Below are positions 1,648 through 53,394 of a stretch of DNA of 64,000 nucleotides, piece by piece. The notes below the pieces were generated by a model. That model was not told the origin of the DNA and made no database searches. It worked only from the letters and a program-made list of their open reading frames with translations. A program made the translations under genes and the position numbers. The first letter of the stretch is position 1. Every line of letters starts with the position of its first letter. The stretch lies in assembly GCA_902802265.1 (NCBI GenBank), contig CADCLN010000023.1, positions 4,116-68,115 of the forward strand, in the 5' to 3' direction. This DNA is from an uncultured Bacteroidales bacterium. GTDB lineage: Bacteria > Bacteroidota > Bacteroidia > Bacteroidales > Bacteroidaceae.

Positions 1648-2595
1648 CTACAGCGGATAGTTCTCGAAGTCGTAGAGAACGGTGGAGAGGTAACGCTCGC
1701 CGGTGTCGGGCAAGAGGGCTACGATTTGTTTGCCTGCATTCTCTGGCAGACGTGCCAGTTCGGAGGCGGCATAGGCTGATGCACCCGACGAGATGCCGAC
1801 AAGGAGACCCTCGGTGGCAGCCAGTTTGCGGCTGGTGAGGATGGCTGCATCGTTGGGCACCTTGAAGATTTCATCGACAACAGCGCGATTGAAGGTCTGG
1901 GGCACGAAGCCTGCACCAATGCCCTGAATCTTGTGGGCTCCTGGGGCTTCGCCACTGAGGACGGCACTGCTGGCGGGTTCGGCGGCAACTATTTTAATAT
2001 GGGGGTTGAGTTCCTTCAGCCGTTTGCCTACACCAGAAACGGTTCCACCAGTACCTACACCTGCCACAAAGATGTCTATCTTGCCGTCGGTGTCGCGCCA
2101 GATTTCTTCGGCGGTGGTGCTGTAGTGGATAGCTGGGTTGGCTGGGTTTTCAAACTGTTGCAGGATGACTGCACCAGGGATGCTGTCGCGCAGTTCTTCT
2201 GCCTTGGCGATGGCTCCCTTCATGCCTGCTGTGCCTGGAGTGAGGACGACTTGTGCTCCGTATGCTTTTACAAGGTTGCGACGTTCTATGGACATGGTTT
2301 CGGGCATGGTGAGAATGAGTTTGTAGCCTTTGACGGCACTCACGAAGGCGAGTCCTACGCCTGTGTTGCCGCTGGTGGGTTCGATGATGGTGGCTCCTGG
2401 ACGGAGTATGCCACGGTCTTCAGCATCGCGAATCATGCTGAAAGCTACGCGATCTTTCACGGAACCTGCGGGATTGAAGTATTCCAGTTTGGCGATGACT
2501 TGTGCGCCGAGATTCTCCGACTGTGAATAGGACTGAAGGCGGAGCAGGGGGGTGTTGCCGATAAGTTCGGTCAGCTGTGTTGCAATTTTTGCCAT
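1648..2595 (-). CDS. cysK: Cysteine synthase A (O-acetylserine sulfhydrylase)
   Basis: 315 aa. N-terminus is [20 protein letters not shown]. Carries the PLP-lysine motif [15 protein letters not shown] and the GVGTGGT loop. Confidence 0.92.
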
Positions 2596-11423: not shown

Positions 11424-13889
11424 TTGCTGACATTCACATTATGTCAGCAAAGTGTGGCTCAGTCTCCATCGTCTGTTCCAATCACCGTCGGAGAAATCAC
11501 AGCCTTGATTGACGATTACCTTTCTCCAGACAACAAAGGGCGCATTACAGTGGAAGACATATCTGCACTGATAGACAAGTATCTTCAGCAAGGTATGCAG
11601 AAGGACTGGCAACTGATAGTCTGGCAAACATCGGGCACCAAGCTCTGCTATGATCTCGACGAGCAGCCGAAGACTACCTTTGATGCTTCCAACCTTCTGC
11701 TCTCCACATCCAAGACAAGCCTTTCCTTTCCGCTTTCTGACATCATTAAATATACGTATGCGGAAAAAGGCAAGGCAGACTTAACGCCCATTCCGGCTCG
11801 GACCGTTCCGAATTACCAAGACGCTGTCTTTGTCTATCGAAACGATGGCACATTCGATGCTTTTCTGCTGGAGAATGTAGATAGCATGAGTTATTCGCAG
11901 TTCAGCGAAACGCAGAAAGTCTATACCCCCGATAGCGTTTATAGCATTCCGCTTGCAGCCATTGACAGCATTGGCTTCCATGCCGATGCGCCCGCATATA
12001 AACACGATGTGATGATGATGAACACCACGTGGATTCCATACGTCATTTGTGTGACGGAGAGCACCATCACATTCCGCAAGGACACACCTGTCAACTTCCT
12101 GCCCGTCAAGGGACAAGTTGTCGCAGCAGAGACCTTCGATGCGCCGTTTGAGTCTGGCTTTGCAGGCAGGGTGACCAGTGTGACAAATTACAAAGACAGC
12201 ATTGTCTATGCTGTAGAAGGCGTTGGTTTGTCTGACATCTACAAACACCTTGTTTGCACAGGTCGCAGCACTTCTTACCTGGAAGGCGAGGAAAACCCTG
12301 AAGCCAAGCGGCGTGTGTTCGACATCAATAGCATTTACTTTCCTTTGCCCAGCAATATCTCAGTGCCAATAGGTCCCGTCACAGTGTCTTGTGCGCCTTA
12401 TGTCTATATGGACTGGGCCATCTGCATTTTTGAAGAAAACTTGCGTAATCAGGCAAAGCTGGTTGTGCACCATACCTACAACGGTTCCGTGCAGCTTGAT
12501 TGTAAGTTTGATGCCGAATATAATCCAGAACCCAAATGGCTTAAAACCTTTATCCCAATTACAACAAGCGTTCCTGGTCTGTATGGAAAAATCATGTTTG
12601 GTGGCTTCTTGAGTGCGTCGGGATCTGTAGAGGTGTCGGCCACCCAGCCCTTTACTATTACTGGCTCATCGGGCTTCTCCTATACAGAGAGCAAAGGCAT
12701 TCAGCGCATCAATGACTGGAATGCACAGATGGAAGACACGGAAATCTCCATTAGTCTCGATGGCTCTGTTTCTGCTGGCTTGGCTGTGCGCTTGCAGTTT
12801 GGCGTATTCCATGAGAAAGTGGCAAGTGCCGACATCACAGCCTATCTTGGGCCCAAACTTTCAGGCAATCTGAAACTCAGCACAGCGGGCGTTATTGACA
12901 AGACGCTCTACAGTGCCATCAAAGATTCGGAAATTACTCTCTCGCTCAATGCCAAAGTCGTGCCAGGCTATCGCTATTGGGCCAATGGTGACCATCAGGA
13001 GTTTCCTGTACCGCTCGAACTGGGCTATAACTTGAACCACTGGTACGCTGTGCCTGAGTTCTCTAATTTGAAGTACACACCCGATGAAACGGGATTCTCT
13101 GGTCAATTGTCGGGTACCATCAGCCGCAATCTGCTGTCCAAAGTTTCAATTGGCTGGGGACTTTACGACGAGAACGATAACCTCTATCGCGCGGAATACT
13201 ATCCGCAGACCTACCGCAAAATAGAGGACTGGCCCTGGAACGGCATGGAAAAGCAACTCAAAGATTTGCCCTACGGTTCACACTACAAGGCGTATCCGCT
13301 TGTGCGGCTGATGGGTGTGGGAATGCGAGCAACAGAAAGTTTGGATGTAGCTCATACGACCTGCCCCGACTCCAACCACCCCCACGCCATTGACCTCGGT
13401 CTTCCTTCTGGCACGAAGTGGGCTTGCTGCAATATAGGTGCAAGCTGCCCTGAGGAATATGGTGGATATTATGCTTGGGGAGAGACGGAAGAAAAGTCTT
13501 ATTATGATTGGAATACTTATAAATATTACAATGAAAATTCAGGCGTTGTGAATATCGGCTCTGATATCGCTGGCACTTCCTACGATGTTGCCCATGTGAA
13601 GTGGGGAGGCAGTTGGCGTATGCCGACTACAGAGCAGCAGCAGGAATTGCTTAATAATTGTTCTTCAGAATGGACATCAGAGAATGGAATATATGGCAGA
13701 CGTTTCACAGGGCCTAATGGCGCTTCTGTCTTCCTGCCTGCCGCGGGCTACGGCGGCTGTTGGTCGAGTTCGCTCTACCCGTACTACGACGGCTGCAACG
13801 CCTACTACCTGGCCTTCGTTTCGGGCGGTGCGAGCTGTTACAACAACTACCGCAACAGCGGTGTATCTGTGCGCGCTGTCTGCCCGTAG
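11424..13889 (+). CDS. Large secreted protein with an N-terminal dockerin-like repeat pair, a central beta-rich region of unknown family, and a C-terminal FISUMP-like domain (Fibrobacter succinogenes major paralogous domain)
   Basis: 821 aa counted from TTG. The N-terminus reads ITVGEITALIDDYLSPDNKGRITVEDISALIDKYL. The C-terminus has GYYAWGE..VAHVKWGGSWRMPTTEQQQELL..FLPAAGY..GVSVRAVCP, which fits the FISUMP pattern as I recall it. The start codon is problematic (see findings). Confidence 0.7.
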   Translation: MLTFTLCQQSVAQSPSSVPITVGEITALIDDYLSPDNKGRITVEDISALIDKYLQQGMQKDWQLIVWQTSGTKLCYDLDEQPKTTFDASNLLLSTSKTSLSFPLSDIIKYTYAEKGKADLTPIPARTVPNYQDAVFVYRNDGTFDAFLLENVDSMSYSQFSETQKVYTPDSVYSIPLAAIDSIGFHADAPAYKHDVMMMNTTWIPYVICVTESTITFRKDTPVNFLPVKGQVVAAETFDAPFESGFAGRVTSVTNYKDSIVYAVEGVGLSDIYKHLVCTGRSTSYLEGEENPEAKRRVFDINSIYFPLPSNISVPIGPVTVSCAPYVYMDWAICIFEENLRNQAKLVVHHTYNGSVQLDCKFDAEYNPEPKWLKTFIPITTSVPGLYGKIMFGGFLSASGSVEVSATQPFTITGSSGFSYTESKGIQRINDWNAQMEDTEISISLDGSVSAGLAVRLQFGVFHEKVASADITAYLGPKLSGNLKLSTAGVIDKTLYSAIKDSEITLSLNAKVVPGYRYWANGDHQEFPVPLELGYNLNHWYAVPEFSNLKYTPDETGFSGQLSGTISRNLLSKVSIGWGLYDENDNLYRAEYYPQTYRKIEDWPWNGMEKQLKDLPYGSHYKAYPLVRLMGVGMRATESLDVAHTTCPDSNHPHAIDLGLPSGTKWACCNIGASCPEEYGGYYAWGETEEKSYYDWNTYKYYNENSGVVNIGSDIAGTSYDVAHVKWGGSWRMPTTEQQQELLNNCSSEWTSENGIYGRRFTGPNGASVFLPAAGYGGCWSSSLYPYYDGCNAYYLAFVSGGASCYNNYRNSGVSVRAVCP

Positions 13890-13953: not shown

Positions 13954-14034
13954 AATCCGTCCTGCCCTCGGGAGGTGCGCGGCGGCCCTCCCCCGAAAGG
14001 GGCCGCAGTGCGCCTCCCGAGGGCAGGACGGATT
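13954..14034. repeat. GC-rich 81-nt near-perfect hairpin
   Basis: The arm aatccgtcctgccctcgggagg (13954-13975) pairs perfectly with cctcccgagggcaggacggatt (14013-14034). Inner pairs are gcgc/gcgc and gcggcc/ggccgc, with an apical cccc-gaaa-gggg. It lies 65 nt after the 821-aa ORF stop. Confidence 0.85.
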
Positions 14035-14164
14035 GCAAAAAAATGAAAAATGGCTCAGATACTTGACATATTAGAAAAAGAAAAGGAATGCACGGAGGAT
14101 TCACGAAGGACTGTCCACCTGTTTCAAGAAGGTTCTTTCTACCGCGCCTACGGAGTTTATCTGT

Positions 14165-14350
14165 AAAAATCTGTCATTTCTGTCATGGACTGTTTATCGT
14201 GCTGATACACAATGGATTTATCAATGACAGATTTCCGAAAAATCTGTCATAATCTGTCATAATCTGTCATTTCTGTCATGGAATCTGTCATTCAATAATA
14301 GGCTGTCAAACAATGATTTAAATACATCCATGACGGAATGACAGATTTTT
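14165..14350. repeat. Iteron-like block of (A)TCTGTCAT motifs
   Basis: Forward CTGTCAT copies occur at 14171, 14180, 14244, 14254, 14264, 14273 and 14285. Five of these are consecutive with a 9-11 nt spacing. Inverted ATGACAG copies occur at 14224 and 14338. The block is bounded by AAAAATCTGTCAT (14165-14177) and ATGACAGATTTTT (14338-14350). Confidence 0.85.
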
Positions 14351-14433
14351 TCTTCAAACTCGTATAGAAAAGGTTTCCCTATAGGAAGCAAGCCTGTGAA
14401 AGATGTAAAAATTTCAGTTCTTCCGACACCACT

Positions 14434-14603
14434 GTAGCAATGCATTGCCACTGCGGTGGCAAAGTTCTCTCGCTGCGGTAGCAATGCAGTGCCACAGCAG
14501 TGGCAAAGTTCTCCCACGGCAGTAGCAATGCAGTGCTACGGCGGTGGCAAAGTTCTCCCACGGAAGTACGAGTGCAGTGCGACGGAGTAGGGGAACTTGT
14601 CTG
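14434..14603. repeat. 22-nt-register repeat array B (7 units plus 1 degenerate, all the same orientation)
   Basis: Two unit types alternate strictly. The units are gtagcaatgcattgccactgcg, gtggcaaagttctctcgctgcg, gtagcaatgcagtgccacagca, gtggcaaagttctcccacggca, gtagcaatgcagtgctacggcg, gtggcaaagttctcccacggaa and gtacgagtgcagtgcgacggag. The array ends 10 nt from the patatin gene stop. Confidence 0.9.
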
Positions 14604-14612
14604 AAAAAATGC

Positions 14613-16658
14613 TTAGAACATATAGCCGATGTTGAAGAAGGCTCCCACTTTTCGGGTAATGTTGCTCCAGTTGAGGTTCAGTTCGATAGGACCAACGGAG
14701 GTGCGGTAACCTGCGCCGATGGCAGCACCAATCATGTTTTTGGTGTCAATGAAGTTGTGGAAGGAATTGCCTGCAAAGCCATAGTTGCAGACGGCAAAGG
14801 CATAGCTGTTGGTGGTGAAATATTGTCGGAAATTCACACCGCCAAAGAGCAGTTCGTTGGGTGCCGACTGGATGAAGTTGATACCTGCAAAAGGCAGTTG
14901 CTGAGGCATATAGTGGCCGTAAGTGTCGATGCCACCGATGAAGTTCACCAGACAGAAATGCGTGTTGTTGTTCTGCACGAAACGTCCTGAAACAAAGGGC
15001 GTAAGAATGGTCTTAGGCGTGAGGGGCAGGGCGATGTTCCAGTATCCCTCAATGGTATTGACGCCACCACGTCCCTGGAAGTTGTAGCCATTGTCGGTGT
15101 AGTATCGGTAAAGCACACTCCATTTCATGCCCTTCTTGGGCAGCACTCGTGCATCCTGACTGTCGTATTGCATCTGGAAGAAATAGGAGAGAGAACCTTC
15201 ATTGTCCTGTTCCTGGGCAAAATCGGCCCAGTTGCTTCTTGTCAGCAAGTCGTCGTAATGCACATATTTATATAAAGTACCGAATGAGATGCTCAGTTGT
15301 CGCCAGGAACGGGAGAGGGAAAGGCTGATGGCGTGTTTGTGATAGTTCAGGTCGGCAATGTTGTCCCCTTCGTTGTACAATTTCGTGTCGTTCAGCGCAT
15401 AGTGGTAAAGCAGCCGCAACCGCCAGTTCTTCCACGGGTTGATGCTGGTATAGAGATGCGTGTAAAGCCGTTTGCCCAGTCGAGCCTCCACACCGACACG
15501 GAAATGGTTGTCATGATTAAATTCGTAGGCACCACCCACCATCAACGTGGCCAGTTCTTCGTTGTCGAAACGTGCGCCGATGCCCACAAAACTGGCGTCC
15601 TTTCGTACTGTGTAGATGGACGGAACAGGTTCAAACGTATTGGGTTCAATCTCAATCTGTTTGGGCTTTCGTTTTACGGTTTCTGGAACGTAGCCGGCGG
15701 GAAGTCCCAATTGCCTTTTCAGTTCCATGAAATCGTTCCACTTTTCACGCGCAGCCGTTTCGCCCCTTGCCAACAAAGTGTCAATGGCAGTATTGGTGAA
15801 ACTGGCAGAGGTATAACCGCTGACATTCACACGAATATAAAGGTCGGTGTTCTTGCGGTTCTCTTCCAGTTTATTGGCACAAGCCAAGTCGAGCACTTGC
15901 ATCAGTACGGTAGAGGCAGATTTGAGTTTTTTATAGTCTCGGGTAGGACTGGTCACGTCCACACCAATCACGATGTCGGCTCCCATTTTCCGTGCCACAT
16001 CCACGGGGTAATAATTCACCAGACCACCATCCACCAGTATCATGCTGTCCCGCTTGATGGGAGAGAACACGCCTGGTATTGCCATGCTGGAACGCATACA
16101 TTCAGCCAGAATTCCTGAGTGCATATCTATCTCGTTGCCAGTCGTTATATCCGTTGCCACACAGGCAAAGGGGATGGGCAATGTGCGAAAGTCGATGCTG
16201 TCCAGATGGTCGGCAGTCAGTTCCGAGAACATTCGACCTATCTTGTTGCCTTTCAGAAATCCACCCTCCATCACTTCAAAAGGATTCTTGTCAAAACGCA
16301 CGCTGACCATATACCTTTCCGTGTTTGATCGGTCGTCCAGTCTGATGCTCTGGCGGTCCACCTTGTCGGTCAGCAGAGACTGCCAGTCCTGTTTCCTGAT
16401 CAGACTGTCTATCTGGTCAGCCTTGTACCCCGAAGCATACAGTCCGCCCACAATACTTCCCATGCTGGTGCCCACCACCATGTCAACGGGGATGCCAGCC
16501 TCTTCAATCACCTTCAGCACACGGGCATGAGCCACACCCTTTGCTCCGCCACCACTCAACACCACGGCTACCTTTTTTCTGTGAGGCCGTTGTGCCATCA
16601 GTGTGGTTGAAAAACAGAACACCAATAACCATGTAAAGACCTTAAAATTCATTTCCAA
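14613..16658 (-). CDS. Patatin-like phospholipase fused to an Omp85/surface-antigen-type beta-barrel (PlpD-like architecture)
   Basis: 681 aa with a signal peptide. Motifs are LSGGGAKGVAH (oxyanion GGGxxG), GTSMGS (GxSxG) and LVDGGL (Asp dyad). The C-terminal ~300 aa is beta-rich and ends in FFNIGYMF. Confidence 0.85.
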   Translation of the reverse strand: MEMNFKVFTWLLVFCFSTTLMAQRPHRKKVAVVLSGGGAKGVAHARVLKVIEEAGIPVDMVVGTSMGSIVGGLYASGYKADQIDSLIRKQDWQSLLTDKVDRQSIRLDDRSNTERYMVSVRFDKNPFEVMEGGFLKGNKIGRMFSELTADHLDSIDFRTLPIPFACVATDITTGNEIDMHSGILAECMRSSMAIPGVFSPIKRDSMILVDGGLVNYYPVDVARKMGADIVIGVDVTSPTRDYKKLKSASTVLMQVLDLACANKLEENRKNTDLYIRVNVSGYTSASFTNTAIDTLLARGETAAREKWNDFMELKRQLGLPAGYVPETVKRKPKQIEIEPNTFEPVPSIYTVRKDASFVGIGARFDNEELATLMVGGAYEFNHDNHFRVGVEARLGKRLYTHLYTSINPWKNWRLRLLYHYALNDTKLYNEGDNIADLNYHKHAISLSLSRSWRQLSISFGTLYKYVHYDDLLTRSNWADFAQEQDNEGSLSYFFQMQYDSQDARVLPKKGMKWSVLYRYYTDNGYNFQGRGGVNTIEGYWNIALPLTPKTILTPFVSGRFVQNNNTHFCLVNFIGGIDTYGHYMPQQLPFAGINFIQSAPNELLFGGVNFRQYFTTNSYAFAVCNYGFAGNSFHNFIDTKNMIGAAIGAGYRTSVGPIELNLNWSNITRKVGAFFNIGYMF

Positions 16659-26028: not shown

Positions 26029-26182
26029 GTGGCACAGTTCTCCCACTTCGGTCGGAGAACTGTGCCACTGCCGTCGCATAGTTCTGCCACTCGGCTGGGA
26101 GAACTGTGCCACTCGGCTGGCAATGCAGTGCCACCGCAGCGGGAGAACTTTGCCGCCGCAGTGGCACTGCATTGCTACTGCA
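26029..26182. repeat. 22-nt-register repeat array C (7 units, alternating core orientation)
   Basis: Units are gtggcacagttctcccacttcg, gtcggagaactgtgccactgcc, gtcgcatagttctgccactcgg, ctgggagaactgtgccactcgg, ctggcaatgcagtgccaccgca, gcgggagaactttgccgccgca and gtggcactgcattgctactgca. A 17-bp perfect stem pairs 26027-26043 with 26054-26070. Confidence 0.9.
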
Positions 26183-33519: not shown

Positions 33520-34226
33520 AATGCCGTAGGCATTAAATAGGGGTAGCCAGCCATACAGCCATGCCGTTAGGTATGGCGAAATGGCTGGAATGCAGGGATG
33601 AACAACATCATCAGCCTGCCTTTAGGTAGGCGATATATATTATAAAAAAATGGCTAATACCTATACGCAAATCTATATGCACATTGTCTTTGCCGTTGGG
33701 CAGCGCGAATGCTTGATTTTCGATGATTGGGCGGACGAACTGTACTGCTATATGGCTGGTGCTTGCCAAAACCGCAAACATTTTGTCCACGCCATCAATG
33801 GAACTGCTGACCATGTGCATTTGCTTATTGGAATGCATCCCAGTGAATCCGTTTCCGAATTAGTTCAATCGTTGAAATTACAATCTACCAAATGGATAAA
33901 CGAAAAATTCCTGCATGGTGCATTTGGTTGGCAGAGCGGATATGGTGCGTTTTCTTATAGCAAATCGTTGGTTCCCGCTGTTAAAAATTACATAGAACAT
34001 CAACGTGAGCATCATCAGCGTGTTTCGTTTGAATCCGAATGGAAAGATATATTAGAAAAGGCAGGAATCAATTATGAACCAGCATATATGATGAGAGGGT
34101 TTGTGCAGCCCTTATCGCCTTCCTAAAGGCAGGCTGGACCGCGTACATAACTTCCATACCAGCCATTTCGCTGTACCTAACGGCACGGCTGTATGGCTGG
34201 CTACCCCTATCTGATGCCTACGGCAT
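33520..34226 (+). mobile_element. RAYT unit: Y1 transposase gene bracketed by ~105-bp inverted hairpin-containing repeats
   Basis: The left repeat (33520-33627) is the reverse complement of the right repeat (34122-34226). Long identical blocks include cctaaaggcaggctg, ccagccatttcgc, cctaacggca, ggctgtatggctggctacccctat and atgcctacggcat. Each arm carries GTAG followed by the palindrome CCAGCCAT..ATGGCTGG. Confidence 0.8.
33650..34126 (+). CDS. rayT: IS200/IS605-family Y1 (HUH) transposase, REP-associated (RAYT-like)
   Basis: 158 aa. It has YTQIYMHIVFAVGQRE, the HUH motif TADHVHLLIG and the catalytic-Tyr region NYIEHQREHH (YIxxQ). The stop codon lies inside the right inverted repeat. Confidence 0.8.
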   Translation: MANTYTQIYMHIVFAVGQRECLIFDDWADELYCYMAGACQNRKHFVHAINGTADHVHLLIGMHPSESVSELVQSLKLQSTKWINEKFLHGAFGWQSGYGAFSYSKSLVPAVKNYIEHQREHHQRVSFESEWKDILEKAGINYEPAYMMRGFVQPLSPS

Positions 34227-34282: not shown

Positions 34283-34447
34283 ACATTATTATACAAATTT
34301 ACATTATTATACAAATTAAGGTTAAAACATCACAAATGTCTCTTCGAAACTTAGCACTTGTCTCTTCGATACACGGCTGTTGTCGATTCGAGACTTAACT
34401 GCTGTTAAAATGGCACAGAGGACACAGAGAAGACAGAGGGCACAGAG
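34283..34447. repeat. Three short tandem-repeat sets: 2x18 nt, 3x22 nt (family 2) and 4x9 nt
   Basis: The sets are acattattatacaaatt(t/a) x2 (34283-34318), about 3 units of (gcac)ttgtctcttcga.ac.. (34337-34402), and ggcacagag/gacacagag/aagacagag/ggcacagag (34412-34447). Confidence 0.8.
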
Positions 34448-34451
34448 GCCT

Positions 34452-34627
34452 GTTGCACAGTTTTCTCACTGCCGTGGCAAAGTTCTGCCGTTGCCCCCGC
34501 AAAGTTCTCTCGCTGTCCCCGCACAGTTCTCCCACCGCAGCGGCACAGTTCTCCCGTTGCGGTGGGAGAACTGTGCGCCGGCAGTAGCAGAACTTTGCCA
34601 CCGCAACAAGAGAACTGTGCGGCTATA
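34452..34627. repeat. 22-nt-register repeat array D (8 units: 5 forward-core, then 3 inverted-core)
   Basis: Units are gttgcacagttttctcactgcc, gtggcaaagttctgccgttgcc, cccgcaaagttctctcgctgtc, cccgcacagttctcccaccgca, gcggcacagttctcccgttgcg, gtgggagaactgtgcgccggca, gtagcagaactttgccaccgca and acaagagaactgtgcggctata. Confidence 0.9.
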
Positions 34628-34631
34628 TCAC

Positions 34632-34675
34632 AAAAAAACACTACACGATGAAAACCTTTTCGTGTAGTGTTTTTT
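34632..34675. terminator. Bidirectional intrinsic terminator (serves the GH43-CBM6 gene)
   Basis: An A-run is followed by the 11-bp perfect stem acactacacga (34638-34648) with tcgtgtagtgt (34660-34670), then a T-run. Confidence 0.8.
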
Positions 34676-40662: not shown

Positions 40663-40816
40663 GTGGCAAAGCATTGTTGTTGCGGTGGGAAAGTTCTCCC
40701 ACTTCTGTGGGAAAGTTCTCTGACTGCGGTGGCACTGCATTGCCGCTGCGGTGGGAAAGTTCTGCTACGGCAACGGCATAGTTCTGCGCCGGCAGCGGGA
40801 GAACTGTGCCACTGAG
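40663..40816. repeat. 22-nt-register repeat array E (7 units)
   Basis: Units are gtggcaaagcattgttgttgcg, gtgggaaagttctcccacttct, gtgggaaagttctctgactgcg, gtggcactgcattgccgctgcg, gtgggaaagttctgctacggca, acggcatagttctgcgccggca and gcgggagaactgtgccactgag. Confidence 0.9.
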
Positions 40817-40833: not shown

Positions 40834-40869
40834 CAAAAAATCACCCTGACTGCGGGGGCGGTCAGGGTG
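40834..40869 (-). terminator. Intrinsic terminator of htpG
   Basis: The 9-bp stem caccctgac (40842-40850) with gtcagggtg (40861-40869) is followed on the minus strand by a T-run (plus-strand aaaaaa, 40835-40840). Confidence 0.75.
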
Positions 40870-40893
40870 TAAATAAGTATGTTGGAGTTGCGA

Positions 40894-49762: not shown

Positions 49763-49828
49763 GCACTTGTCATTTCAAAACACAGCACTTGTTGATTCAA
49801 AACACAGCACTTGTTGATTCAAAACTTA
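49763..49828 (+). repeat. 3 x 22-nt tandem direct repeat (family 2) upstream of susC
   Basis: Units are gcacttgtcatttcaaaacaca, gcacttgttgattcaaaacaca and gcacttgttgattcaaaactta. A TAACTTTG box (49756-49763) abuts the left edge. Confidence 0.9.
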
Positions 49829-49983: not shown

Positions 49984-50061
49984 CCCCCTGTTTTGTGTAA
50001 AAGTGTGCATACATGTGTGGAAACAACCCTCGTGTATGCTCTAATGTTAACTAATATATTT

Positions 50062-53000
50062 ATGGTATTCAACAAGAAAGGATTTTCTTTGTGGCTATTG
50101 CTGTGTCTGCTCTCAGTGGGCAGCGTAATGGCTCAGAGCAAAATTTCGGGAACAGTGGTTTTCATGGATGACGGTGAACCGATCATCGGTGCATCAGTCG
50201 TAGTGCAAGGCGAAAAGATGGGCGTTGTCACAGACTTGAACGGACATTTTACGCTCACCGTCCCGAAAGGAAAGAAGTTGACCTTTAGCTACATTGGTAT
50301 GGAGTCGGTGACACTCTCGCCCAAGGATGGCATGAAGGTGCAGTTGAAGTCGAGCAATGAGCAGCTCAACGAAGTGGTTGTCACTGGTATGCAGAAGATG
50401 GACAAACGTCTGTTTACGGGTGCAACGACGAAAATTGATGCAGGCGATGCGAAAATCGACGGTGTGGGAGACATCAGTCGCTCGTTGGAAGGACGTGCAG
50501 CGGGTGTCAGTGTACAGAACGTGAGCGGTACGTTTGGTGCGGCTCCGAAGATTCGTGTGCGTGGTGCCACGTCTATCTATGGCTCGTCGAAACCGCTGTG
50601 GGTGGTCGATGGTGTCATTATGGAAGACGTGGTCGATGTGAGTGCCGACGACCTTAGCTCGGGCGATGCCAATACGCTGGTATCTTCTGCCATTGCAGGC
50701 TTGAACTCGGACGACATTGAGAGTTTCCAGATTCTGAAAGACGGTAGCGCTACTTCTATATATGGTGCGCGCGCAATGGCTGGTGTGATTGTTGTAACTA
50801 CCAAGCGTGGTAAGGCAGGACAGGCTCGCATCAACTATACGGGTGAATACACCATGCGTCTGAAGCCTTCATACGCCAACTTTAACATTATGAATTCGCA
50901 GGACCAGATGTCCATCTATCAGGAACTGGAGCAGAAGGGCTATCTGAACTATGCCGAGACTGCCAACGGCAGCGACACGGGTGTGTATGGCAAGATGTAT
51001 CAGATGCTGAGCGAGTATGACCCCACGACGGGTATGTTTGCGCTGAACAATACGCCAGAGGCTCGTGCAGATTATCTGCGTGCTGCTGAGTATCGCAACA
51101 CAGACTGGTTCAGCCGCCTGTTCAATAACTCTATCCAGCACACCCACTCTGTGTCGATGTCGGGTGGTACAGATAAGATGCAGTATTATGCTTCGGTCAG
51201 CGCCATGGTTGATCCAGGGTGGTCAAAGCGCAGTGCTGTGGATCGCTACACGGCAAATCTGAACTCTACTTTCAAGATTTCAAACAAGATATCTTTCGAC
51301 ATCATCAGTAGTGCTTCTTACCGTAAGCAGGAGGCTCCTGGTACGTTGAGCCGACAGGTTGACCCCGTTTCCGGTACCGTTTCACGTTCATTTGACATTA
51401 ACCCCTATTCGTATTCTCTGAACACCAGCCGTGCGTTGGACGCTGATGCTTACTATACTCGTAACTATGCTCCGTTCAACATCTTCCACGAATTGGCAAA
51501 CAACTATATTGACATCAATGTGGTTGACTTCCGTCTGCAGGGCAAGCTGACCTATAAGCCTGTCCGCAAGGTGGAACTGAGCTTGCTGGGTGCAGTGAAG
51601 TATTCTGCCAGCAGCCAGGAGCACAACATTTTGGACGACTCAAACCAGGCACAGGCTTACCGTGCCATGGGTACTTCGACCATCCGCAAGAACAACAACT
51701 ATCTCTATACTGACCCCGACAACATCTATGCGCTGCCTATCTCCATCCTGCCAAACGGTGGTATCATGGAGCGTACAGACAATCGCATGCTGGGTTACGA
51801 CATGCGTGCAGCCGTGAGCTACAACGATGCGTTCAACGACGATATGCACATTATCAACCTCTATGGTGGTATGGAGACAAACAGTGTGGACCGTCATGCC
51901 ACTTGGTTCCGTGGTTGGGGTATGCAGTATTCTCAGGGAGAAATTCCTGCCTACGCTTATCAAGCTTTCAAGAAGGGTGCTGAGCAGAACAACAGCTACT
52001 TCTCACTGGATAATACCCGTGAACGCAGTGCAGCCTTCTTTGCCAATGCCACTTATTCGTTCAAGGGACGCTACACGCTGAATGGTACCATCCGCTATGA
52101 AGGTACGAACAAGCTGGGCAAGAGCCGCAGTGCACGTTGGTTGCCTACATGGAACGTGGCTGGTGCATGGAATGTGCATGAGGAAAATTTCTTTGAGAAG
52201 CTGAGGCCAGCACTTTCCAACTTAACTTTCAAACTGTCTTATTCATTGACCGCCGACCGTGGTCCATCGGATGTGACCAACTCCCGTGTGGTTATTGGTA
52301 GCACAAGCCCTTGGCGACCCTTTGCCAGTGTGAAGGAGACTTATCTCTACATTTCAGACTTGGCTAACGAGGACCTTACTTACGAGAAAAAGCATGAGTT
52401 CAACATCGGCATGGAGGCAGGCTTCCTCAACGACCGCATCAGCTTGGCTGTGGACTGGTATAAACGTAACAACTACGACCTGATTGGCCCTGTTACTACA
52501 CAGGGTGTGGGTGGTGCCATCCAGCGTTTCGGAAATATTGCTACGATGAAGTCGAATGGTTTGGAAATCAGTCTTTCTACCGTAAACATTAAGAACAGGA
52601 ATTTCAGCTGGACTACGAGCTTCATTTACTCACATACGCACAGCGAAGTGACAGGACTGGAGTCTTCTCGTCGATTGGTTGACCTGGTGTCGGGTAGTGG
52701 CTTCACAATGGAAGGCTATCCTGTGCGCAGTATCTTTTCCATTCCTTTTGTCGGACTGAACAAAGAGGGTTTCCCTGTGTTCATCGGACATGAAGGTGAG
52801 AAGACCACAACGGGCATTTTCTTCCAGGAATCCGAACCCGAACTGCTGAAGTTCCTGGAGTATTCGGGCAGTGCAGAACCAACAGACATGGGTAGCTTTG
52901 GCAATGTGTTCAAATATAAAGGCTTCACGCTGAATGTCTTTGTTACCTATTCGTTTGGCAACGTGGTTCGTCTTGACCCTGTATTCTCCAACAAGTACAG

Positions 53001-53394
53001 CGACCTGACGGCACATCCCAAGGAGTTCAAGAATCGCTGGGTAGTGCCAGGCGATGAGCTTTACACCGATATTCCAGTCATTGCGAGTGCACGTCAGAAC
53101 CGCAACGACACCGATCTTTCATACGCCTACAGTTCTTACAACTACAGTACGGCCCGTGTGGCTAAGGGTGACTTCATCCGCATGAAGGAAATTTCACTGA
53201 ACTACGATTTTCCTCAGTCGCTCATCAGCCCGCTGAAACTGAATTCTCTCTCGCTGAAGTTGCAGGCTACCAACCTGTTCCTGATTTATGCTGATAAGAA
53301 GTTGAACGGACAAGACCCCGAGTTTGCGAATGCAGGTGGTGTGGCTGTGCCTATGCCAAAGCAGTTTACGCTGACATTGAGATTAGGGCTTTAA
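50062..53394 (+). CDS. SusC/RagA-family TonB-dependent outer-membrane transporter
   Basis: Start is at MVFNKKGFSLWLLLCLLSVGSVMAQ. The alternative Met is at 50044. It has a CarbopepD-reg-like ISGTVV..GASVVV..TDLNGHF, a plug domain, a long barrel and a C-terminal TLTLRLGL. Confidence 0.9.
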   Translation: MVFNKKGFSLWLLLCLLSVGSVMAQSKISGTVVFMDDGEPIIGASVVVQGEKMGVVTDLNGHFTLTVPKGKKLTFSYIGMESVTLSPKDGMKVQLKSSNEQLNEVVVTGMQKMDKRLFTGATTKIDAGDAKIDGVGDISRSLEGRAAGVSVQNVSGTFGAAPKIRVRGATSIYGSSKPLWVVDGVIMEDVVDVSADDLSSGDANTLVSSAIAGLNSDDIESFQILKDGSATSIYGARAMAGVIVVTTKRGKAGQARINYTGEYTMRLKPSYANFNIMNSQDQMSIYQELEQKGYLNYAETANGSDTGVYGKMYQMLSEYDPTTGMFALNNTPEARADYLRAAEYRNTDWFSRLFNNSIQHTHSVSMSGGTDKMQYYASVSAMVDPGWSKRSAVDRYTANLNSTFKISNKISFDIISSASYRKQEAPGTLSRQVDPVSGTVSRSFDINPYSYSLNTSRALDADAYYTRNYAPFNIFHELANNYIDINVVDFRLQGKLTYKPVRKVELSLLGAVKYSASSQEHNILDDSNQAQAYRAMGTSTIRKNNNYLYTDPDNIYALPISILPNGGIMERTDNRMLGYDMRAAVSYNDAFNDDMHIINLYGGMETNSVDRHATWFRGWGMQYSQGEIPAYAYQAFKKGAEQNNSYFSLDNTRERSAAFFANATYSFKGRYTLNGTIRYEGTNKLGKSRSARWLPTWNVAGAWNVHEENFFEKLRPALSNLTFKLSYSLTADRGPSDVTNSRVVIGSTSPWRPFASVKETYLYISDLANEDLTYEKKHEFNIGMEAGFLNDRISLAVDWYKRNNYDLIGPVTTQGVGGAIQRFGNIATMKSNGLEISLSTVNIKNRNFSWTTSFIYSHTHSEVTGLESSRRLVDLVSGSGFTMEGYPVRSIFSIPFVGLNKEGFPVFIGHEGEKTTTGIFFQESEPELLKFLEYSGSAEPTDMGSFGNVFKYKGFTLNVFVTYSFGNVVRLDPVFSNKYSDLTAHPKEFKNRWVVPGDELYTDIPVIASARQNRNDTDLSYAYSSYNYSTARVAKGDFIRMKEISLNYDFPQSLISPLKLNSLSLKLQATNLFLIYADKKLNGQDPEFANAGGVAVPMPKQFTLTLRLGL

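Follow-up and report, generated by a model that had tools for sequence, protein, structure and literature searches.

A family of phase-locked 22-nt intergenic arrays resembling REP/BIME repeats in a rumen Bacteroidaceae bacterium

Tandem arrays of short, partly palindromic units lie in five spacers of a 64,000-nt stretch of contig CADCLN010000023.1 (positions 4,116 to 68,115, the whole of which is called the window below). One of them, at 14434-14603 of the window, raises the question treated here: what kind of repeated DNA is this, and is the transposase-like gene that lies beside another of the arrays the enzyme that goes with it? The host, which is uncultured, is a rumen bacterium of the Bacteroidaceae/Prevotella group. 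Its HtpG is identical to an NCBI protein labelled “MAG: Bacteroidaceae bacterium”, and its contigs come from cattle-rumen projects. An earlier note on this DNA had proposed a likeness to repetitive extragenic palindromes and bacterial interspersed mosaic elements (REP/BIME), and had taken the protein encoded at 33650-34126 for a REP-associated tyrosine transposase (RAYT). We consider, with a probability of about 0.55, that the arrays form a REP/BIME-like family of non-coding DNA repeats confined to one lineage. The likeness in shape, the intergenic position and the proximity to stop codons were upheld; the link to the protein at 33650-34126 was not. The family is narrow and fast-changing, with clusters gained or lost between sister species and remodelled by module between strains.

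A 22-nt module in exact register

When the five loci were printed in lines of 22 nt, 37 full units, accompanied by degenerate edge units, fell into exact register, which bears out the earlier count of five intergenic arrays of 7 to 8 units with a strict 22-nt period. Each unit is an 18-nt “double-foot” quasi-palindrome, GT(G/A)G-N10-C(C/T)AC, plus a 4-nt linker. The palindromic skeleton GTGG-N10-CCAC is common to all units, and the linkers come in complementary pairs (TGCG/CGCA, GGCA/TGCC and TTCA/TGAA). Column composition supports the three core types that had been described: F is GTGGCAAAGTTCTCCCAC, R is GTGGGAGAACTTTGCCAC, the reverse complement of F, and P is GTGGCAATGCATTGCCAC, a perfect palindrome. 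Because skeleton plus linker is symmetric, the module fits either way round with the 22-nt phase intact, and F and R units are found together in the same arrays at the exact period. The five arrays, A to E, are composed as follows.

Array A, 1400-1597: a decayed unit, F F F P R F R, a decayed P; 51 nt from the stop of a cysK-like gene (1648-2595, minus strand).
Array B, 14412-14609: a decayed unit, P F P F P F P, a decayed R-like unit; 10 nt from the stop of a patatin/Omp85 gene (14613-16658, minus strand).
Array C, 26029-26182: F R F R P R P; 58 nt past the stop of a GH3 gene and 201 nt ahead of the start of a GH2 gene.
Array D, 34452-34627: F F F F F R R R; 102 nt from the stop of a GH43-CBM6 gene, between the cassette of the transposase-like (Y1) gene and a separate terminator hairpin (34633-34675).
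Array E, 40663-40816: P F F P F F R; 77 nt from the stop of htpG, beyond that gene's own hairpin and T-run (40843-40870).

The extra decayed units at the left of arrays A and B occupy 1400-1421 and 14412-14433. The perfect alternation of two unit types claimed for array B is seen as P-F-P-F-P-F-P, and the neighbouring genes were confirmed with Pfam (cysK-like PALP, patatin/Omp85, GH3, GH2, GH43-CBM6 and HtpG).

Tandem Repeats Finder, run on the window, reported period-22 repeats at 1409-1494, 14434-14580, 26043-26182, 34477-34560 and 40681-40785, with 0% indels in every row except an alternative alignment of array C (26043-26116). Within the 37 units, two columns at symmetric positions, A6 and T13, are invariant (37/37 each), and positions 5 and 14 are occupied by C or G only. 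Of the 37 units, 30 have G1, 28 have T2, 33 have G4 and 32 have C18; 22 start with an exact GT(A/G)G, whose complement C(C/T)AC stands at positions 15-18. Position 7 of the core differs among arrays (A, C or T). The core GGCAAAGTTCTCCC, allowing up to 3 mismatches, has 34 matches in the window, compared to 5.6 +/- 2.5 (maximum 13) in dinucleotide shuffles. A position matrix derived from the units gave 71 matches, only 4 of them outside the arrays; these were weak (12.4-14.2 bits) and lay in coding DNA. Contigs from four different samples agree base for base in arrays C, D and E, where these are present, and the arrays are therefore not assembly artefacts.

Two candidate identities were discarded. 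A coding role was rejected on the grounds that the period is not divisible by 3 and that a whole 22-nt unit has been gained or lost between strains, and a CRISPR array was rejected as the units abut via the 4-nt linker, with no spacers.

All five arrays follow a stop codon, at the distances of 10 to 102 nt given in the earlier note, which proved correct. Beyond the window, among contigs fetched for comparison (L numbers), the distance between array and stop is -13 to +16 nt in L012, L033, L061, L090 and L147. Arrays occupy 5 of the approximately 12 non-divergent spacers of at least 150 nt in the window and none of the approximately 5 divergent ones, as counted on an automatic gene map that miscalled bglX. 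This distribution is consistent with promoter avoidance and is not significant alone. A consensus terminator scan found none beside arrays A, B, C and E. Terminator-like hairpins, detected by eye or by repeat search, adjoin only arrays D and E, the one near D being a perfect 16-bp hairpin (34633-34675) that has runs of A and T at its sides and separates array D from the GH43 stop. As these hairpins are separate from the arrays, the latter are not uniformly “the terminator”.

The spacers that carry arrays B and D hold further short repeats, and a large GC-rich hairpin stands downstream of the gene at 11424-13889 (14241-14351, 34414-34448, 34283-34317 and 13965-14040 for the whole set). Among the repeats are approximately 9 copies of AATCTGTCAT in both orientations, an 18-nt direct duplicate, and four copies of CACAGAGGA that abut array D. 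There is also a second tandem family of 22-nt period, unrelated to the first (GCACTTGTTGATTCAAAACACA and its variants), at 49763-49827 and 34336-34400 of the window and at 2856-2914 of L147, a contig from a sister species. It forms three units in the divergent spacer upstream of a large open reading frame (ORF, 50044-53394), degenerate copies directly left of array D, and three units directly right of the L147 array.

What argues for a REP/BIME-like nature is a set of shared habits. In both cases the units are short, palindromic and extragenic, share a conserved GT(A/G)G end, and are clustered in both orientations at regular spacing; they are found at the 3′ ends of genes, their copy number changes between strains, and their sequence families are species-specific. 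Small-stem, GTAG-headed REPs reiterated in tandem have been described, in the part of the survey of Di Nocera et al. (2013, PMC3733652) used here; in the same part, GTAG families are assigned to Proteobacteria, Cyanobacteria and the PVC superphylum, and Bacteroidetes are credited only with CGTC-type repeats. Closer in form are the “double-foot” REPs, 5′ GT[AG]G ... C[TC]AC 3′, of the subclass-2.4 TnpA_REP (Bertels group 4), known from Bacteroidetes and Cyanobacteria (PMC6006769). They share both the framing tetranucleotides and the phylum with the units of the window, but are long and flank, or are inserted in, the tnpA_REP gene, whereas our units are 18 nt long and form phase-locked arrays.

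No catalogued match was found in Rfam, PLSDB, viral contigs or the searchable literature, in line with the earlier opinion that this is not a described element. Rfam gave no match at gathering threshold, and a permissive scan, of the array B region alone, gave only sub-threshold matches to generic miRNA-like hairpins. A distant blastn search of PLSDB plasmids with array A as query was empty, and two patterns run against viral contigs returned only chance or unrelated 11-nt repeats and a mis-binned Bacteroides locus. A full-text literature search for the unit sequences yielded unrelated primer strings only, and one for REP or RAYT in Bacteroidota or Prevotella yielded nothing specific.

Hairpins at the level of the array

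Single units had been described as mini-hairpins. This holds for P, whose DNA fold alone is -6.0 kcal/mol, and for a GTGGGA variant (-3.9), but fails for the commonest unit, the F unit GTGGCAAAGTTCTCCCAC, which as DNA reaches only -0.9 kcal/mol (z-score -0.5). F units barely fold because positions 5 and 14 form a C.C mismatch. Whole arrays were predicted to behave differently, as listed below for RNA.

Array A: -105.8 kcal/mol, z -13.9 on the plus and -14.6 on the minus strand; one long hairpin.
Array B: z -3.6 (plus) and -5.9 (minus).
Array C: z -10.6 (plus) and -10.8 (minus); three adjacent hairpins.
Array D: z -11.6 (plus) and -9.9 (minus).
Array E: z -5.4 (plus) and -4.6 (minus).

Folds as DNA had z-scores of -8.7 to -11.4 (A -11.4, D -10.7). 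In these models, then, it is the array and not the unit that is stably structured. Its F arms are base-paired to its R arms, its tip is formed by a P unit or a linker, and on either strand, be it single-stranded DNA or RNA, the predicted fold of a cluster is one or a few long imperfect hairpins.

F stands before R in most arrays that have both, in the window and elsewhere, with A and C interleaving them. It had been proposed that every array begins on the plus strand with forward cores and that inverted cores appear towards the right. Arrays B and E in fact begin with P, and an F...R cluster reads F...R on both strands, which makes it an array-level inverted repeat and not a strand orientation. 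Since the arrays are strand-symmetric, a bias of strand orientation, or of orientation relative to replication, which had been suggested as worth recording, cannot be defined for them.

Variation in the two arms is concerted. The base at F position 7 complements that at R position 12 of the same array in 43 of 62 pairs, where 27.5 were expected (permutation p = 0.00075, 8 arrays). This reflects either selection for pairing of the arms or local copying between them.

Short tandem repeats whose transcripts, if made, would be highly structured also bring to mind a dedicated RNA element, be it a precursor of RNAs of approximately 22 nt, as had been suggested, or a repeat-RNA antitoxin of the ToxI type. 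Nothing was found that points to processed RNAs of that size. No toxin or endoribonuclease gene is adjacent at the five loci, the arrays are strand-symmetric and lie on either side of separate terminators (D and E), Rfam returned generic hairpins only, and the order of units is not conserved. Such an element is, in our opinion, very improbable.

The Y1 gene beside array D

The ORF at 33650-34126 matches Y1_Tnp in Pfam (92.6 bits). Its NCBIfam score for IS200/IS605 is 71 bits (cut-off 55), and that for REP_Tyr_transpos is 18.6 bits (cut-off 80). The motifs DHVH, WQ and YIEHQREHH match subclass 1.2 (Y---Q--HH) and not the YIxxNP of class 2. Its best relatives in PDB are the TnpA proteins of ISDra2 and IS608, and the E. 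coli TnpA_REP is absent from its PDB matches at E ≤ 1. Judged by its sequence, the product is an IS200-like protein of subclass 1.2 and not a class-2 RAYT. The subclass-1.2 TnpA_Y1 proteins are known from Cyanobacteria and Bacteroidetes, at low copy number and with “no” REP association (Quentin et al. 2018, PMC6006769).

The gene has hairpins of its own. Its cassette is bounded by 72-nt arms (33521-33592 and 34155-34226) that are 92% complementary and carry a GTAG-headed hairpin, GGTAGCCAGCC...GGCTGG, and an inner 24-nt inverted pair (33612-33635 and 34113-34136) hugs the ORF. Among 146 fetched loci, the GGTAGCCAGCC motif was found only beside Y1 genes. The Y1 protein itself was found on 13 contigs, and those long enough to show neighbouring genes all share the same neighbours, as for a single-copy gene at a fixed locus. 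In this trait and in its inverted GTAG-headed hairpins the cassette is REPtron-like and agrees with class-2 RAYT genes. Homologues with 69-77% identity in three other species (L134, L137 and L141) lie in other neighbourhoods with the same flanking hairpins, and no 22-nt unit was present anywhere in these loci. Conversely, in the sister species represented by L147 the syntenic Y1 gene is broken by an inversion and an array of the family is still present. That array D lies next to the Y1 gene is unremarkable, as arrays occupy about one third of the larger spacers. On these comparisons, the adjacent Y1 gene does not appear to be the cognate enzyme of the arrays. The attractive link between a RAYT and the arrays is thereby corrected, and the private hairpins add a little to what is known of subclass-1.2 TnpA_Y1, which has been described as generally without such structures.

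The inversion in L147 (20900-21235) comprises the 5′ half of the Y1 gene and the left hairpin. Its breakpoints lie at AATGC/GCATT microhomology, beside a small ATGCCGTAGGCAT hairpin, and it looks like an inactivating rearrangement of the cassette.

Turnover of the arrays and their likely nature

Units in the same 22-nt register do exist beyond the window. Among 185,579 species representatives, the exact two-unit pattern was found in only two metagenome-assembled genomes (MAGs): the roe-deer genome RGIG3754, with diverged arrays of 7-8 units in perfect register, and the rumen genome mag_137, with a two-unit remnant only. A scan of metagenomes with a three-unit skeleton gave at least 120 matches, which were sorted by eye and by matrix. 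Most of the 120 listed were 11-nt satellites, Rep_3 iterons or other families; among the matches listed, about a dozen rumen contigs carried true arrays of the family with unrelated flanks. The commonest size in approximately 17 arrays was 7-8 units, a mode that may be an artefact since short-read assemblies break at longer arrays.

In contigs L006-L010, L108 and L125 the contig end falls inside an array or the Y1 cassette, or within approximately 150 nt of either. Both repeats seem to break short-read assemblies, which would bias estimates of array length and copy number.

Comparison with close relatives showed how quickly the arrays come and go. The 88 kb examined from four relatives whose HtpG is 83-91% identical hold no array, and an ordinary terminator follows htpG in two of them at least (L144 and L146). 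L147 has the gene order of the window, with a GH3 gene 85% identical. Its GH3-GH2 spacer is an empty site of 138 nt, compared to 413 nt in the window with array C; by alignment, the extra bases in the window, approximately 273, lie directly past the GH3 stop and comprise array C with approximately 60 nt on each side. L147 has an array of its own, with 10 units in the order F4-P-R4-P, at a position different from those of the window: 9 nt past the stop of the gene that borders the array B spacer on its other side. In another relative, L148, five TCGGGAAAGTTTTCCCGCTTCA units form a variant array. Between strains, changes are modular. Strain L054 has lost exactly one 22-nt unit of array E (40707-40728), in a locus whose flank, right of the array and across htpG, is 93% identical to the window. 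In L102 and L083, the orthologues of array B keep 7 units with a changed order of types, including a P/F chimera.

Array-free rumen Bacteroidales carry unrelated intergenic tandem repeats of their own, most with periods of 21-24 nt (L141 5338-5489; L137 4-121; L134 3072-3145 and 8663-8736; L144 4707-4808; L145 18772-18958); one of these, GTCCGGCGCGCGCCCGACGTTT, is palindromic. A period near two helical turns may be a trait that recurs in rumen Bacteroidales.

Indels and replacements of whole units between strains, the decay of edge units, and the occurrence of several other, unrelated 21-24-nt intergenic repeats in these genomes would all be expected of neutral minisatellites that arise in place, by slippage and template switching on a palindromic seed, without mobility or function. 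We nevertheless judge this explanation clearly improbable. The same units are found at 5 unrelated loci in 64 kb and, with different flanks, on about ten other contigs, and the presence of one 18-nt sequence at many loci calls for dispersal or a common source. In the sister species, moreover, the site of array C is empty and the family is found elsewhere.

If the arrays do move, they might do so as a minisatellite-bearing MITE (a miniature transposable element with inverted repeats) of the BrickBuilt type, non-autonomous and mobilised in trans by a DDE transposase. BrickBuilt elements of Porphyromonas gingivalis are dispersed and strictly intergenic; their 23-nt units follow one another without spacers, with long predicted stem-loops and a unit number that varies between strains (PMC4596501). 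In habit they are the nearest described relative within Bacteroidales, indeed the nearest described thing in the phylum. A few flanks of our family could be read in the same sense: L058, L090 and L100 share approximately 15-40 nt left of similarly ordered arrays (...GTACGTCA), and the first and last of these contigs, L058 and L100, also have a short right end in common, GAGAACTTTGCTTTTT. Against this, the BrickBuilt consensus, AGAYCATARTATCCTCTCRTRTG (23 nt), is unrelated to that of the window, GTGGCAAAGTTCTCCCACNGCN (22 nt). BrickBuilt elements are direct repeats for which no inverted units are reported, whereas arrays of the window hold both orientations. BrickBuilt also has a leader and a tail that end in IS5-like terminal inverted repeats, which have no counterpart at the window arrays. 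Identity with BrickBuilt was therefore rejected, period, consensus and the leader and tail bearing terminal inverted repeats all being different. Nor is anything common to the flanks of the five window arrays and most others, where neither leader or tail, terminal inverted repeats nor target duplications are seen. Even an element merely of this type is in our view distinctly unlikely.

The rigid 22-nt phase without indels suggests another reading, that of platforms for a protein. The operator-like palindromes, with half-sites TGGCA / TG(C/G)CA, recur every 22 bp, i.e. two helical turns, and dimers of a host protein could be aligned on one face of the DNA as on iterons, centromere-like sites or BIMEs that bind gyrase or IHF. 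The invariant, symmetric A6/T13 and the restriction of positions 5/14 to C/G would fit binding, as would the 7 units kept by array B orthologues despite replacement and the 7-8-unit mode in approximately 17 arrays, although this modal length is perhaps an artefact of breaks in short-read assemblies. The same 18 + 4 design, as TGGCA-N6-TGCCA, occurs in other gut Bacteroidales, for example in the spacer between ECF-sigma and FecR genes, and true 22-bp iterons of Rep_3 plasmids matched the same skeleton pattern. These iterons share with our arrays a head-to-tail arrangement, a strict 22-bp period and a GGCA...TGCC core. They are, however, direct repeats beside rep on a plasmid, whereas the arrays are chromosomal and dispersed, with inverted units, and no rep gene was found among the ten array-flanking and nearby genes scanned. 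We hold the platform reading to be rather unlikely: the arrays are patchy among close relatives (none in 88 kb, an empty orthologous site), unlike a conserved chromosomal system; no candidate gene for a binding protein is linked to them; and the variation of position 7 among arrays, with its covariation between arms, fits base-pairing or local copying better than recognition by a protein.

The iterons came up through the degenerate skeleton pattern and are unrelated to the window family. They were seen in sets of 3-5, GTGGCAAAACTATGCCTTTAAT, beside Rep_3 initiator genes on two small high-coverage contigs, L034 (9.9 kb) and L072 (7.8 kb), and the presence of the same repeat at both ends of each contig suggests that these are circular. 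The TGGCA-N6-TGCCA units of other gut organisms likewise consist of an 18-nt palindrome and a 4-nt linker, at a 22-nt period (L046 7690-7780, also L022, L026, L035 and approximately 15 more contigs; L087 11384-11540; L121 7984-8071; L073; L077; L032). One such locus, conserved in the human gut, lies between genes for an extracytoplasmic function (ECF) sigma factor and a FecR anti-sigma factor.

Chains of 18 + 4 modules locked in a 22-bp phase might even constitute a distinct class of Bacteroidales element. This is speculative, with some small chance of being right. If it were true, the window family, the TGGCA-N6-TGCCA arrays and possibly BrickBuilt-like arrays of 22-23 nt would be its variants, and one would have to think of a RAYT-free, hairpin-templated mode of spread, or of a platform of approximately 150 bp for a protein that reads two turns per module.

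We return to the reading that we prefer, a lineage-restricted REP/BIME-like family. Its unusual traits are the rigid 18 + 4 design, the lack of isolated units, and the array-level hairpin with F arm, P tip and R arm. Several of our observations weigh against it. Classical REPs are mostly singletons or dimers at variable spacing, whereas the position matrix found essentially no isolated unit in the window and the phase of the arrays is rigid: the 18-nt units abut via a fixed 4-nt linker and are essentially never alone. They also differ from REP/BIME units in bearing the tetranucleotide at both ends, and their commonest form, unlike a classical REP, is not self-folding. No cognate enzyme is within reach. 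The hairpins that flank the Y1 gene are unrelated to the 22-nt units, a phmmer search revealed no other Y1 or RAYT ORF in the window or the fetched loci, and no RAYT or other enzyme flanked by 22-nt units was found there; a REPtron, that is, a RAYT flanked by the same REP, was thus not observed, the sole Y1 gene having other hairpins. The mobile unit is undefined, as the segment missing in L147 exceeds array C, and no leader, tail, terminal inverted repeat or target duplication is common to the array flanks, where sharing is limited to orthologous loci, three similar rumen copies and the second 22-nt repeat family. Finally, the constant 7 units of the array B orthologues could reflect a constraint on length, hence a function, and not drift.

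How a REP/BIME-like family would come to be so regular can be outlined. Arrays probably grow and homogenise in place: whole modules may slip or be exchanged unequally, and strand switching templated by a hairpin may turn F into R, both of which would preserve phase. As the module is symmetric, slippage and strand switching keep the phase, which would explain the rigidity. Spread to new loci may proceed through a process that acts on single-stranded hairpins, and the obvious candidate mobiliser is, most plausibly, a class-2 RAYT of subclass 2.4 encoded elsewhere in the genome, such a gene being absent from the window and the fetched loci. REPs are known as RNA hairpins at 3′ ends, stabilising or insulating transcripts. 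The benefit of the arrays to the cell, if any, would most likely be of this kind, a 3′-end RNA hairpin serving as transcript stabiliser or insulator.

REP/BIME biology rests almost entirely on Proteobacteria. The general phenomenon met here is a familiar one; what stands out is an unusually clean grammar, in a phylum under-studied for REPs. As arrays and Y1 cassette coincide with contig ends, they affect the contiguity of MAGs in short-read rumen assemblies. The inversion of modules with conservation of phase is directly visible in these arrays, which offers a clean system for studying how they grow, and a GTAG/GTGG-headed family of rumen Bacteroidales with so rigid a grammar widens the known design space of REPs.

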